Source: Gemmatimonadales bacterium (GTDB lineage: Bacteria; Gemmatimonadota; Gemmatimonadetes; Gemmatimonadales; GWC2-71-9). Taken from it: 64,000 bases of DNA. The notes under the pieces were generated by a model. The model was not told the origin of the DNA. It worked only from the letters and a program-made list of their open reading frames with translations, and ran no database searches. The position numbers were made by a program, and so were the translations under genes. The DNA lies in contig JBFGJG010000025.1 of NCBI GenBank assembly GCA_041577295.1, positions 1,416-65,415 of the forward strand, written 5' to 3'. This document shows positions 20,359-25,428 of the stretch, piece after piece. Every line of letters begins with the position of its first letter. The stretch's first letter is position 1.

Positions 20359-20631
20359 TTACCTGCGGCTACCTGGCGAACCTGGTAAGGTACCCGGTGG
20401 CTCCGAGCCTGGTGGTGCCTGCGATCCGGGGGCCGACCCTCCCAATCCAGGTCCACCAATGGCCGATCCGGTCCACGGGCCGTGCCCCTCCTTACCTGCG
20501 TGCTTGTGGCTGGTGCTCTTCCCCTGTCCTACCGCTTCCAGCGGTGCAGCCATACTGTGGATGACGGGTGCCGCATACACCGCCCCTTTGGCAAGGCGCC
20601 GAAGAAACGCGCGCCGGTCTTCCTTTGTCAT
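20359..20631 (-). CDS. 90-aa candidate RiPP precursor / twin-arginine small protein
   Basis: GGAGG RBS and ATGA overlap with methyltransferase stop; MTKEDRRAFLRRLAKGAVYAAPVIHSMAAP leader then Gly/Pro/Ser-rich tail; C-terminal part of track ORF 20359..21048. Confidence 0.75.
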   Translation of the reverse strand: MTKEDRRAFLRRLAKGAVYAAPVIHSMAAPLEAVGQGKSTSHKHAGKEGHGPWTGSAIGGPGLGGSAPGSQAPPGSEPPGTLPGSPGSRR

Positions 20632-21797
20632 AAAGCCTCCTGTGCCACAATCGGCGTCGCGTGCTCCAAAGCGACCCGTCCACGAAGCGTGCTCACCACG
20701 AACCGCTCCGCCTCCGGCTCGGCGAGATCCGGTCGCACGCGACGGACCTCCCGGGCAAGATCGCGAACCGTACGCTTGCCGTCTGTGAGCTGAAGCACCA
20801 TCGCCTCGAGCGCACCCCCGGCGTCGAGTCGGGGAACGAACGCCGACGACATCGCTTCGAGCTCCGCTAACGACGCTGGCAGTCCCGCTAACTCGTACCC
20901 ACGTCTCGTCGTTACGCCATCGGTCAGCGTCCACGAAAGCCAGCCCGGGCAGCCGTCCGGCAGCGGGCGTGGCTCGACGGTGATCCTGAGCCGCCGCCGG
21001 GCGAGGAGCACGAGCGGGGCCTCGATGGGAAGGAAGAGGTGCCCCCACGAAGCGGGGTCGGCACCAGGAGCATTCGATAACTGCTCGCCTCCGCCGAGAT
21101 CGAGATCAAACCACAACGCGACGCCGTGAATCTGGCAATCGTGCGTGAACGTCCACTCGGCATGCCCACCAAGCGCCGCGGTGGTGGGGACCTTGTCGAA
21201 CTCCACGACGCCAATCGCGGCCGGCGGGCCCGCCAAATCGGCCGGGGTGAGGTTGCCGCTCAAGGGAGCATTGACGAGGTACTCTCGGCTGGGACTCCAG
21301 TCGATCCCGTACGATGAATCACCGGGCCCGAGCTCGGCGATTTCGCTCCAAGCGGCGGCTGAGCTCACCGGTGCGATATGCACCGTTCCTCGCGCTGGAA
21401 CGGCGCGAGCGTTCGGCTCCGTGTAGCCCCGGTGGACCCACCGGAGTAGGCGAAAGGTTCGAGCGTCCAGAAGCCGCGGTGGGAAGTCCTCGAAAATCAC
21501 CACGTCCGCGGGCTCGGGGAGTTCCACGGCTGGAATCCACCCACGGATGAATTCGACACGATCGCGGTAATCGTTCACGGCGGCTACAGCGTTCGCGACG
21601 TGCACGATTGGGTGCCCGTCGACGGCCCACACCCGTGCCGCCCCTGCGTCGGCGGCGAAGAACGCAAACGTGCCAAGACCCGCACCCACGTCGAGCACCC
21701 GGTCACCCTGCTGTACGACACGAGCGACGGCGCGTTGGAACGCCGTGATGCGCTTCTCCTGCTTGAGGAGGTCGCGGTAGTACTTAATGTCGCTCAA
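20628..21797 (-). CDS. PRMT-like SAM methyltransferase with C-terminal PqqD/RRE-like domain
   Basis: VLDVGAGLG, VWAVD, VELPEPADVVIFE, HGVALWFD and LSNAP..ASW motifs; C-terminal LQLTDGKRTVRDLA; TTG start estimated. Confidence 0.8.
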   Translation of the reverse strand: MSDIKYYRDLLKQEKRITAFQRAVARVVQQGDRVLDVGAGLGTFAFFAADAGAARVWAVDGHPIVHVANAVAAVNDYRDRVEFIRGWIPAVELPEPADVVIFEDFPPRLLDARTFRLLRWVHRGYTEPNARAVPARGTVHIAPVSSAAAWSEIAELGPGDSSYGIDWSPSREYLVNAPLSGNLTPADLAGPPAAIGVVEFDKVPTTAALGGHAEWTFTHDCQIHGVALWFDLDLGGGEQLSNAPGADPASWGHLFLPIEAPLVLLARRRLRITVEPRPLPDGCPGWLSWTLTDGVTTRRGYELAGLPASLAELEAMSSAFVPRLDAGGALEAMVLQLTDGKRTVRDLAREVRRVRPDLAEPEAERFVVSTLRGRVALEHATPIVAQEAL

Positions 21798-22074
21798 GCA
21801 GCAGCCCCTGTTCGCGAAAGCGTGCAATGGCCGCTTGGACGTCGCTGAGCACGCGGTCCCGTGGCTGCGGTGGCTCGAAGACCGTCGCTACATGATCGGT
21901 GATTTCATCGATATCGCGCTCACCGGTGCACTCCATCCAAATGAGCGCAGCAGTGAGATTCAGGGCGTGGAGACGGTCCGAGACCGGATCGAAGATCACC
22001 CAGTCATCGTCGAGTTGCCTGAACAGCACATCATCTCGTGCCCGCGGACGGACCCGCAATGCATCGTTTTCCAT
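21784..22074 (-). CDS. PqqD-family protein / RiPP recognition element
   Basis: VLFRQLDDDWVIFDP, LHALNLTAALIW..CTGER.IDEI and DV...IARF...GLL; 96 aa. Confidence 0.9.
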   Translation of the reverse strand: MENDALRVRPRARDDVLFRQLDDDWVIFDPVSDRLHALNLTAALIWMECTGERDIDEITDHVATVFEPPQPRDRVLSDVQAAIARFREQGLLLERH

Positions 22075-23258: not shown

Positions 23259-24067
23259 GCCGCACCCTCGTCCGCGCCGCCAAACGTCATCTCCAGACAG
23301 CGGGCATGCTTGATCAGCTCGCAAAGCCGCTCGAACGAGCGTGCTCGCGAGAGCCCCGTCGCGCGAACGCTGTTCATGACCCGTTCTAGCGCAGTAAAGC
23401 GGCTGACGTCTCGCAGCGTCGCTTTGGCATCCCGTTGGTGTCGAACGAAGGCGAGCACTCCAACCGGCGCGGCCTCGGCCCACCCGCTGACCGGCGACGG
23501 ATCAAACCACGCCTCGTCGCTATCCGCTTCCCAAAAGGGCGTATCCGCGGGAGCGATGCCCCGTTCACGAAGCAACGCGGGAACAACCTTGAAGAGTCGC
23601 CTGAACGAAGTGGCCCGCGCGCGGTCGTCGATGAGAACGATATCGTCGCTGAGCACTGGAAGACCGGACACGGAGAAACTGAACGCAAGGCTCGACTTCC
23701 CCGCCCCCGAATCCCCAACCACGAGCACCGCGCGACCCTTGCGCACCGCCCCTCCGGCGTGGAGATGCGCGAAGCCGCCACAGGCGCTGAGAAACGTCTC
23801 CGCAAGCGTATACTCCACGACGATCATCAATTCCTGGCTGGACGCGTGCCGCTCGTCGGGATTGCCGGCCCGCTGTAACAGCCACCCATCTCCATCTCTC
23901 ACGATGTGAAGATCACGCTCATTCGGACGACGGGTGGGCACGGTGATGGCATACGGCTCGAAGAGCGACCGGACGTGTCCAGCGAGGACAGCATCGTCGC
24001 AGATCACCTGTGTTTCAACCTCACAAACCCGGAAACAAACCACCGCAGCAGTCTGATAGGCTACCAT
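23234..24067 (-). CDS. HPr-kinase-related P-loop kinase
   Basis: LHAGGA, Walker A GDSGAGKSS and LSDD motifs; TAATG overlap with upstream gene. Confidence 0.85.
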   Translation of the reverse strand: MVAYQTAAVVCFRVCEVETQVICDDAVLAGHVRSLFEPYAITVPTRRPNERDLHIVRDGDGWLLQRAGNPDERHASSQELMIVVEYTLAETFLSACGGFAHLHAGGAVRKGRAVLVVGDSGAGKSSLAFSFSVSGLPVLSDDIVLIDDRARATSFRRLFKVVPALLRERGIAPADTPFWEADSDEAWFDPSPVSGWAEAAPVGVLAFVRHQRDAKATLRDVSRFTALERVMNSVRATGLSRARSFERLCELIKHARCLEMTFGGADEGAACLAAMLT

Positions 24068-25428
24068 TACCAGAACAGCGTGAACTGTCCGCGGGCGCCA
24101 CCAAACGACATTCCGTCCCCCTCGCCATCGAAATCCGTTGCCGACCCCACGCGCACGGCAAACCGCTCGCTCCCACGCCAGCCAACATCGTAACGGAAGC
24201 GATACTGTATCCCACCGAGCGTTCCCGAGGCCGGCACCTGTCCTTCTCCCCGCGGATTTCGGGCGCCGTTCCACGCAAACCCGCCGGCAAGGAGAAATCC
24301 AGAGGCCGCTCGATAGGTGAGCAATACATCGGCATTGAACGCGGCAAGCAGGAAATCGACGTCGTTCGCCTCACCCAACAGAAATTCTCTGCGCTCCGGC
24401 CGCCACGTATGGCGGAGCCATCCTTCCAGCCGCCACCGTGGACCAGGATGCACGAGGCCGAACACGCCAACGGCGGTGGTTTGCTCCGTGAGCCGATAGC
24501 TGACCACCGGAGCGGTGGGCGAAAGCGGTGTTCGCACGGATCGGGCCCATACAGTGCTGGCAAACGCGCCGGCGCTCACATTTGGTCCCATAGTCCATTC
24601 CAGGAGCGTTCCGGCATACGCAAAGCGTTCACGCTGGCGGAGGCCGGCGGCACGATCGCGTCCTTCGTACGCCAAAATCGTCGCCGGCCGCATCCACGCT
24701 ACGAAACCCTCCATCCGGACGGTCTTACTCACTGGTAGGGAGGTCGTTGCGCGGATCGCGATGGGCTGACGTTCGTACTCGAGCGTGCTGTCGACGTCGA
24801 CTTGCCGTTGCGCATCGAAATTCAGAAAGACCAGATCATTCATCGGATCCAGGACGGCGGCGGTCACATTGAGCCTGGCTCCGCCGGGGTGACGCCAATC
24901 GATCCCGGTCTCGAAGTCGGTTCCGGGCTTGCGTGGATCCACGTGCCCTCGTACGAATCCGGTTGTCGTGGAGGAGAATTGTCGGTGGATGGAAAGACGC
25001 ACCGGGCTCCGATTGGCTACCGGGAGGTCGACTTTGTTGAAGCGCACACCAATCGACCAACTCGCGCCCACGGGAACGAGCACCTTCATTTCGCTGTCCA
25101 TGATGAGGTCCCGCTTCGTAATGCTCGCAACGCCCCACCGGACCCCGTTGTCGCGTCCGTACCAGCGGTAGTCTTCCCACAAGGAGAAACTCGCGGAAAG
25201 ACGGTCCAGGAAATACTTGTCGTCAACCCGCTGGTGAAATCGCTCGAGAATCCCTCGATCGCTCAGACGACCCCCGAACGCACCGTTGCGATCGAGGATC
25301 TGGAGCCAAACGTCTTCCGCCCAACCCTCCAGCGTTGCGTGTCGAAGCTCCTCGAACGCGCCTTGGGCTGGGGCGTGCGCTGGCAACGCGAGCGTCAGGA
25401 TCGCGATGGACGTGCCGAAGCGCCTCAT
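24067..25428 (-). CDS. Putative outer-membrane beta-barrel protein
   Basis: Signal peptide, alternating beta-strand pattern, C-terminal ...RGQFTLFW. Confidence 0.65.
   Translation of the reverse strand: MRRFGTSIAILTLALPAHAPAQGAFEELRHATLEGWAEDVWLQILDRNGAFGGRLSDRGILERFHQRVDDKYFLDRLSASFSLWEDYRWYGRDNGVRWGVASITKRDLIMDSEMKVLVPVGASWSIGVRFNKVDLPVANRSPVRLSIHRQFSSTTTGFVRGHVDPRKPGTDFETGIDWRHPGGARLNVTAAVLDPMNDLVFLNFDAQRQVDVDSTLEYERQPIAIRATTSLPVSKTVRMEGFVAWMRPATILAYEGRDRAAGLRQRERFAYAGTLLEWTMGPNVSAGAFASTVWARSVRTPLSPTAPVVSYRLTEQTTAVGVFGLVHPGPRWRLEGWLRHTWRPERREFLLGEANDVDFLLAAFNADVLLTYRAASGFLLAGGFAWNGARNPRGEGQVPASGTLGGIQYRFRYDVGWRGSERFAVRVGSATDFDGEGDGMSFGGARGQFTLFW

Follow-up and report, generated by a model that had tools for sequence, protein, structure and literature searches.

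A conserved bacterial operon in which a candidate precursor peptide with a Tat-like leader accompanies a peptide recognition element, an HprK-like kinase and a PRMT-fold methyltransferase

The window analysed here is a 64,000-nucleotide stretch of the genome of a Gemmatimonadales bacterium (contig JBFGJG010000025.1), and its segment 20359-25428 carries six genes which the original prediction, made from the letters alone, had put forward as an undescribed system for modifying a peptide in the manner of peptides that are made on ribosomes and altered after translation (RiPPs). The genes and their features, in window coordinates, are as follows.

24067-25428, minus strand: secreted protein, probably of the outer membrane and of no known family, here called the barrel protein (open reading frame, ORF)
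23234-24067, minus strand: HprK-like kinase, 277 amino acids (best solved relatives are HPr kinases)
22119-23258, minus strand: NTP_transf_5 nucleotidyltransferase, accessory, 379 amino acids (PF14907)
21784-22074, minus strand: discrete PqqD protein, a RiPP recognition element (RRE), 96 amino acids (PF05402)
20628-21797, minus strand: S-adenosylmethionine (SAM) methyltransferase with the protein arginine methyltransferase (PRMT) fold and a rebuilt substrate pocket, 389 amino acids (PRMT6 profile match, structure model, Foldseek)
20682-20822, minus strand: C-terminal three-helix tail of the methyltransferase, optional (hhalign to the PqqD alignment)
20359-20631, minus strand: peptide of 90 amino acids (ORF)
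20527-20631, minus strand: putative precursor leader, residues 1-35, with twin arginine, YxxPxI, P-6 and G-1 (alignment of 64 peptides)
20359-20526, minus strand: predicted 55-residue core from Gln36, with a Pro/Gly tail (leader register)
20314-20338, minus strand: intrinsic-terminator-like hairpin, 20 nt 3′ of the peptide stop codon (11 pairs and a T run)

All six ORFs lie on the minus strand within the segment and, read from the barrel gene towards the peptide, are separated by -1, -25, +44, -14 and -4 nt, so that, as had been described, they overlap at every junction but one. The start of the methyltransferase was placed at the TTG codon at 21797, the alignment of its relatives beginning at residue 1. 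The set does end in a 90-residue peptide and a terminator: the small ORF is coding, with leader differences at codon positions 1, 2 and 3 of 0.37, 0.27 and 0.58 across 63 relatives, and the hairpin (20338-20314) has a fold z-score of -4.19, with none of 200 shuffles equally good. Neither an insertion nor a deletion nor a joint was seen in the contigs of two DNA runs, one of which may be the source sample. The lasso cyclase, B2 protease, radical SAM and YcaO genes that had been reported missing found no match anywhere on the window's contig, the macrolactam synthase (PF00733) and B2 protease (PF13471) profiles included.

The extent of the conserved unit was established by comparison with related loci. 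An alignment of 54 methyltransferase sequences led to 73 genome and 80 metagenome loci, and linkage was counted in 44 Gemmatimonadota genome loci (L036-L079 minus the acidobacterial L076, plus L088; L106 and L108, both truncated, were not counted), a locus having room when at least 500 nt lay downstream for the peptide or at least 2.6 kb upstream for the kinase and nucleotidyltransferase. The PqqD gene lies 5′ of the methyltransferase gene in 44/44 loci and the peptide 3′ of it in all 41 with room, which runs contrary to the possibility, raised with the original prediction, that homologous cassettes lack such a peptide; the kinase is upstream in 38 and the nucleotidyltransferase adjacent in 34 of the 40 loci with room. 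Gene orders vary (with K for kinase, N for nucleotidyltransferase, P for PqqD, M for methyltransferase and A for peptide, they are K-N-P-M-A, N-K-P-M-A, K-P-M-A and P-M-A-K), and the peptide always adjoins the methyltransferase. Three genomes with only a P-M-A locus have a close kinase-nucleotidyltransferase pair elsewhere, while in two genomes with K-P-M-A the nucleotidyltransferase hits are only weak in one and a distant homologue in the other. Of the 301 class genomes, 14 encode a close methyltransferase (E at most 1e-87) and a further one has it split over two contigs; in all 15 the peptide adjoins it and a kinase is present. The same 301 genomes gave 17 peptide and 18 kinase matches, the kinase being found in 17/17 peptide genomes, with profiles built partly from the scanned genomes and with kin among these that do not count as independent; none of the eight family f6 genomes was among the loci behind either profile. 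Fourteen genomes with distant methyltransferases only had neither peptide nor kinase at the thresholds used. In Gemmatimonadota the cassette stands alone amid housekeeping genes, and no peptidase or exporter cluster recurred beside it among the neighbours of relatives' loci, which were clustered on 1444 ORFs picked from 6521 (some antisense frames were taken, which makes the cluster counts minimum values). Kinase, nucleotidyltransferase, PqqD, methyltransferase and peptide genes together make up a conserved bacterial operon, and the sixth gene, that of the barrel protein, is probably a mere neighbour.

The peptide is a conserved, linked partner of this enzyme set and has the anatomy of a RiPP precursor. 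In 64 distinct peptides (63 complete relatives and the window's own, truncated and duplicate ones having been dropped), gathered by similarity to the window's peptide in a way that favours leader conservation, the leader retains R-30 in 63, R-29 in 61, Y-17 in 64, P-14 in 63 and I/V/M-12 in 64; its end retains S/T-10, P-6 and G/A/S-1 in all 64 and is followed by Q+1 in 52. A wider peptide profile comprises 171 clusters at 50% identity, with the pattern RR...(Y/F/W)xxP in 141 of the 150 listed. The consensus (S/T/D)RRxFLK is the signal of substrates of twin-arginine translocation (Tat), and the pattern P-6, L/V/A-3, G/A-1 fits the signal peptidase I rule. The leader has the motif, a weakly hydrophobic stretch and the peptidase site; RRxF[LIVM] is found in 52/64 leaders, and median hydrophobicity is 1.45 (0.79-1.93), compared with 1.6 in 27 long ORFs of the genome that bear the motif, a few of which look spurious. 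Matches to Tat families at E up to 0.5 are weak (TIGR02811 in 23/53 and TIGR01409 in 12/53 members). TatC and one signal peptidase I (PF10502) are encoded on contigs other than the window's. The leader has the look of a Tat signal that carries a site for signal peptidase I; this would account for the missing protease and exporter.

Hypervariable cores, in which Gly, Ser, Met, Lys and His abound, follow the leader; they have a Pro-rich tail, and their start conforms to a loose pattern: in 88 cores, Ser or Thr occurs at +3 to +6 in 79 and Lys, Met or His at +6 to +10 in 86, with Arg at +2 to +12 in 6. The candidate phosphorylation site of the window's core is Ser39-Ser41 and its candidate methylation site His42-His44, Lys43 being favoured. 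Two loci carry tandem precursor genes with the same leader and different cores (L071:9779-10312 and L123:1979-2521). A segment C-D-(Y/W)-(F/I/Y)-P-x-x-C after a Met-rich start suggests a disulfide loop in peptides of L062, L118, L119 and L130, and is likewise present in those of L135, L139 and L071.

The RRE and the nucleotidyltransferase are assigned by hidden Markov model (PF05402, 46.8 bits against a cut-off of 23.4; PF14907, 60.9 against 31.2). The best Protein Data Bank (PDB) match of the RRE family is LppB (9x8z, E 7e-6), followed by TfuB1, PqqD and TbiB1. N39 is conserved in 66/66 and D/E78 in 63/66 sequences; by alignment the family retains the Asn and Asp with which LppB holds its motif, and it is without LppB's central Phe. 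When the RRE was modelled with peptide residues 1-42, the score was 0.52, whereas none of three controls exceeded 0.00; partner pLDDT (model confidence) was at least 63, and at least 95% of contacts agreed between runs. The score mark is reached by 116/157 solved and 2/215 mismatched pairs, and 18 of those solved pairs and both mismatched ones score 0.60 or under, so that the model is a weak pass and may reflect likeness to solved RRE-leader complexes. The kinase scores 21.9 bits against HPr kinase C, below the cut-off of 33.3, and its His103, GxxGxGK(S/T) and Asp141-Asp142 are invariant in 50/50 aligned relatives. These are the residues that, in the portion of PMC10368454 consulted, BsfK needs; there and in the accessible text of PMC13381572, respectively, BsfK and LppK phosphorylate Ser3 of the core, BsfK with help from an RRE. 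The DxD motif of the nucleotidyltransferase is kept (D115 and D117 each in 44/45), and a PDB search gave no solved relative; for pseudomycoidin, the sections seen of PMC8498205 describe a related enzyme that attaches hexoses to phosphate. Elsewhere in this genome (G000:C43:34935-35402, minus strand) there is a PqqD-like protein whose C-terminal extension resembles a degenerate leader or signal segment, with no kinase adjoining.

The methyltransferase matches the PRMT6 profile (E 1e-41) and falls just short of PRMT_C (25.6 bits, cut-off 27); its model is confident (pLDDT 92.7), with PRMT6, CARM1 and PRMT1 as Foldseek matches. Arginine-binding residues were mapped through the PRMT6 alignment onto 88 methyltransferase relatives, in PRMT1 residue numbering. 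In PRMT1, as excerpted from PMC8592882, arginine is held by E144, E153, H293 and D51. The first Glu is kept in 87/88 relatives, the second in only 6/88; the His column of the THW motif is occupied by S, P, G, V or A, with no His among the six residues listed there, and the equivalent of D51 is mostly Gln. Asp104 is newly conserved (81/88), and Arg8 and Arg108, near the pocket, are present in 50 and 48 of the 88. With the second Glu and the THW His lost, arginine methylation in the usual PRMT manner is not supported, and the enzyme appears to be a remodelled protein related to the arginine methyltransferases of eukaryotes, with a target that is probably not arginine. Its description as a PRMT-RRE survives in part: the PRMT fold stands, and the C-terminal tail corresponds to the helical half of an RRE only. 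Alignment of the tail to PqqD by hhalign gave 85.8% (E 5e-6, 41 columns) against at most 0.3% for seven non-overlapping control slices, and in the model it forms helices without strands, where a complete RRE has three helices and a three-stranded sheet. The tail is present in 62/88 relatives and missing, in some through truncation, in the other 26.

Whether pocket and core vary together was assessed by 792 column tests in 63 enzyme-peptide pairs. Column 10 scored best; it is the Met of HEEM in PRMT6, presumably lining the substrate pocket (a literature search on PRMT1 Met48 found nothing). In the 63 pairs Met10 goes with a Lys-free core start in 13/13. In 25 new pairs, Leu10 goes with Lys in 11/12 and Phe10 with its absence in 11/11, and Met10 is found once with and once without; in this new set alone several other columns score equally because the Phe group is one lineage. 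Over all 88, Leu or Ile at column 10 coincides with Lys at core +3 to +12 in 50/59, Met10 with at least two Met in 14/15, and Phe10 with at least two His in 11/11. A tree from which these columns were excluded yields five independent pairs, 3.6 of them running the same way and 0.1 the opposite way, with a median p of 0.25; the link between column 10 and core type is accordingly a lead. Column 105 (Phe/Tyr), also considered as a specificity switch, did not replicate in the new pairs.

Some copies of the methyltransferase gene are irregular. In L047 (11962-13458) it is interrupted by about 1.5 kb, the near-identical L110 being intact; L052 and L068 carry frameshifts; and the 446-residue database protein P0206, in which the methyltransferase reads into the peptide, is probably an artefact of a frameshift, though it may be a fusion. 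Two genomes of the same order have distant homologues with the PRMT fold (L034 and L035; 31-34% identity), which occupy other contexts without this peptide; their neighbours, judged by eye, are Asn-synthase-like, kinase-like and nucleotidyltransferase-like.

Taken together, these features lead us to favour, by a modest degree, a pathway in which RRE-guided phosphorylation and methylation of the peptide would be followed by Tat export and signal peptidase I cleavage. Its individual steps differ in how well they are founded. The discrete RRE very likely binds the YxxPxI motif of the leader, and would thereby present the core to kinase and methyltransferase. The kinase, by analogy with LppK and BsfK at Ser3, would then quite likely phosphorylate Ser or Thr at core +3 to +6, here Ser39-Ser41. 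Addition of a sugar or nucleotide to that phosphate by the nucleotidyltransferase, as an optional step, is evenly balanced between yes and no. The methyltransferase may, more tentatively, methylate a non-arginine side chain at +7 to +9, which would be Lys43 here and His or Met in other lineages. Finally, there is a reasonable likelihood that the product is exported by Tat and cut at Gly35|Gln36 by the housekeeping signal peptidase I to leave a 55-residue periplasmic peptide. From the Met- and His-rich cores one might speculate that this serves as an envelope or metal-binding peptide. A far bolder proposal, which we regard as rather unlikely, is that the system represents a widespread class of RiPPs. 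Its leader would serve the RRE as a handle and Tat as a signal, so that no dedicated protease or exporter would be needed, and its PRMT-fold enzyme would have been remodelled to methylate residues other than arginine. The choice would be set by a single position of the pocket, with Leu selecting lysine, Phe histidine and Met methionine, and the methionine case would yield S-methylmethionine (sulfonium) residues in a secreted peptide.

A number of observations weigh against the favoured pathway. No core Ser is invariant (S+4 in 35/64), whereas S/T-10 of the leader is. The window's own peptide matches neither TIGR02811 nor TIGR01409, and Arg occupies -11, in the would-be hydrophobic region, in 7/64 leaders; leader conservation itself was favoured by the manner of collection already mentioned. 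LppN had no detectable activity in the LPP study, as far as the available part of PMC13381572 goes. The column-10 pattern, picked from 792 tests, is not significant after kinship and is broken by locus L330. A second cassette in this genome (L271, C81:2332-4957), with peptide, PqqD, kinase and NTP_transf_5 genes and without a methyltransferase, encodes a peptide with a WxxPxV twin-arginine leader and a short Tyr/Gly core devoid of Ser and Thr; a similar second cassette is present in G001 (L266). Lastly, a search for the RR...(Y/F)xxP pattern found no peptide in the Marinimicrobia polysaccharide loci described below.

Several rival accounts share part of this evidence. If the methyl group went onto the phosphate, or onto the group added by the nucleotidyltransferase, rather than onto a side chain, the peptide would still be the substrate and would bear a methyl-phosphate cap. 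Such a cap would suit the presence of the methyltransferase alongside the kinase in 15/15 genomes, the frequency of Arg8 and Arg108 near the pocket and the fact that neither Lys nor His nor Met, taken singly, is as uniform near the start of the core as Ser/Thr; it is nevertheless unlikely, those arginines being far from invariant and pocket residue 10 following the Lys/Met/His type of the core, although not significantly on the tree. It is also improbable that the twin-arginine segment is solely an enzyme-docking helix, with the peptide remaining cytoplasmic or being cut by another protease. The fixed spacing from RR to the cleavage site, Lys or Arg as far along as -21 and the paucity of TIGR01409 matches (just 12/53 even at E 0.5) are what a docking helix might show, and the helical tail of the methyltransferase could conceivably bind one; P-6, L/V/A-3, G/A-1 and Q+1 are conserved, however, as fits signal peptidase I, no dedicated protease or exporter recurs, and hydrophobicity lies within the range of the genome's Tat-motif proteins.

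Related loci outside Gemmatimonadota bear on a further alternative, namely that the enzymes act in the chemistry of the cell envelope or of polysaccharides, the peptide being a carrier or regulator whose released form is not the end product. Trios of PqqD, kinase and methyltransferase with RR...(Y/F)xxP peptides occur in Nitrospinota, Poribacteria, Methylomirabilota and others, nine such outgroup loci having been recognised by pattern, plus L086. In Marinimicrobia-type loci (L085, L089-L095, L097, L101 and L103) the PqqD, kinase and PRMT-fold genes lie inside Wza/Wzc/Wzy clusters, and ahead of these trios comes a small protein that has a membrane anchor and a conserved GSAVR motif. That outgroup trios stand amid glycosyltransferase and Wza/Wzc/Wzy genes, in many cases with no RR/YxxP peptide detectable, and that LPP clusters too are placed in capsule loci in the text seen of PMC13381572, speaks for a carrier or regulator, whereas the isolation of the Gemmatimonadota cassette and the hypervariable, product-like core speak against one; we consider it quite improbable.

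There is only a slim chance that the enzyme is a true arginine methyltransferase which acts on the leader's twin arginines and thereby gates export. The PRMT fold with its first Glu, the possibility that Asp104 replaces the lost one, and the near invariance of RR, the sole conserved arginines, are compatible with such gating; but PRMT1's four arginine-binding residues include two that are missing here and one mostly replaced by Gln, and Tat alone explains the conservation of RR.

The barrel gene had been counted as a member of the system and a possible route of export. The ORF is real, and the barrel fold itself is only weakly indicated: the single-sequence model has a pLDDT of 31.5, and look-alikes in the Atlas are outer-membrane-type clusters at 0.94-0.97, at a recognition of 2170, below the mark of 2300. 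Neither membership nor an exporter role held up. A barrel profile match occurs beside the cassette in 1 of the 44 loci (L051, the same stretch as the G001 match; 37 of the 44 had 4.5 kb or more upstream), and homologues are present in 47/301 class genomes. In 20 regions of 6.6-14 kb around such homologues no cassette was found, one weak opposite-strand kinase-profile hit apart, and the 94%-complete genome G002, from the same genus, carries the cassette without the barrel. The gene is probably a passenger, translationally coupled here and not part of the system. A role for it as exit or receptor, dedicated to the peptide and sited in the outer membrane, is least probable of all, since its one-base overlap with the kinase gene, its adjacency in G001, a paralogue fragment about 1.8 kb upstream of the second PqqD cassette and the excess of homologues anywhere in cassette genomes (10/15 against 37/286 others) are outweighed by the locus counts, by G002 and by the lack of association within family f6 (6/8 cassette genomes, 6/8 others). 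The paralogue appears as two halves at the ends of contigs C81 and C31 (L271:3-527 and L272:1-853), probably one gene.

The chain of overlaps extends upstream of the barrel gene (M14 peptidase/DAO oxidase -4 nt, DAO oxidase/barrel -4 nt), so that overlaps cannot set the left boundary of the system there; the peptidase and oxidase, present in 3 and 1 of the relatives' loci, were rejected as members. Beyond the terminator lies a block on the minus strand (16017-20229) encoding an FAD oxidoreductase, a VTT protein, DUF547, GT2 and DUF2064 proteins; the block is also found after the cassette in some ten related loci. Lying 3′ of the terminator, and with the oxidoreductase in 10 loci, it was set aside as marking a genomic site. 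Terminator-like sites in the region (6, against 7.3 in shuffles) are not above shuffles, and the terminator was likewise rejected as a conserved feature, a crude scan giving one in 13/59 loci. A promoter scan of the region returned a single site, on the opposite strand and not above shuffles.

The operon offers a short, expressible candidate substrate for three kinds of enzyme that are poorly understood: for the HprK-like kinases of cyclase-free clusters, for NTP_transf_5 proteins and for bacterial PRMT-fold methyltransferases, none of the last being among the matches listed in PDB searches. If the leader does double as a Tat signal, RiPP maturation would be handed over to housekeeping secretion, which would explain clusters that look incomplete and suggest why genome miners miss them. 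The pattern of pocket against core, for its part, points to a concrete residue swap as a test of how a PRMT scaffold changes target. The operon is undescribed in the literature searched, which largely leaves subscription journals uncovered, and the supplementary tables of PMC13381572 could list such operons; term look-ups in parts of PMC7470986, PMC12710340 and PMC12637814 gave nothing on it.

Among known systems, the closest parallel is provided by the linear polyphosphorylated peptides (LPP; lppA-K-B-S-D-N of Paenibacillus alginolyticus, published in 2026), on which the following draws on part of PMC13381572. Both systems have a discrete RRE of the lasso B1 type, an HprK-like kinase and an NTP transferase, and no macrolactam cyclase; both have a YxxP leader, a hypervariable core with Ser near its start and cleavage of the signal peptidase I type (predicted here). 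LPP clusters have their own SipW-like peptidase and an MsbA-like ABC exporter, whereas here the sole PF10502 match is on another contig and no such exporter was seen among the flanking genes scanned or the recurring neighbours. Of the LPP consensus YxxPxVLxHQxIxFETxxS the window's family shares only YxxPx(V/I), and the LppA register (Y-16/P-13/V-11) is one residue off its own Y-17/P-14/(I,V)-12. The twin-arginine leader, the G/A|Q site and the PRMT-fold methyltransferase go beyond LPP; the words 'methyltransferase', 'Tat' and 'twin-arginine' are absent from the main text of that paper. Phosphorylated lasso peptide clusters (paeninodin, pseudomycoidin with PsmK/PsmN, and Bradymonas bsf) also combine an RRE, an HprK-like kinase and a nucleotidyltransferase in the portions covered of PMC8498205 and PMC10368454, and the leader register of BsfA is given there as Y-17/P-14/-12, equal to that of the window's family; discrimination between YxxP and WxxP is documented, in the excerpts available, for the LPP and paeninodin RREs. 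The present system differs in having a Tat-like leader, no B2 protease or macrolactam synthase nearby and no ring-forming core pattern. With the HPr-rel-A cassette, to which the original prediction had linked it, it shares three protein superfamilies, TIGR04352 being the best NCBIfam match of the kinase; the scores are nonetheless below cut-off (TIGR04352, 51.9 against 200 bits; TIGR04353, 23.5 against 35 bits), the best kinase E value among 50 relatives is 2.6e-17, and a methyltransferase and a peptide are added, so that membership was not borne out. The methyltransferase resembles eukaryotic type I PRMTs (PRMT6, CARM1 and PRMT1) in its Rossmann and beta-barrel domains, SAM motifs, first Glu and THW Trp; it differs in lacking the second Glu and the THW His, in starting a few residues before the helix equivalent to HEEM, in its optional RRE-like helical tail and in being encoded in a bacterial peptide operon. 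Judged by its predicted components, the system would work like LPP, yet is itself neither an LPP member nor a lasso cluster nor an HPr-rel-A cassette.

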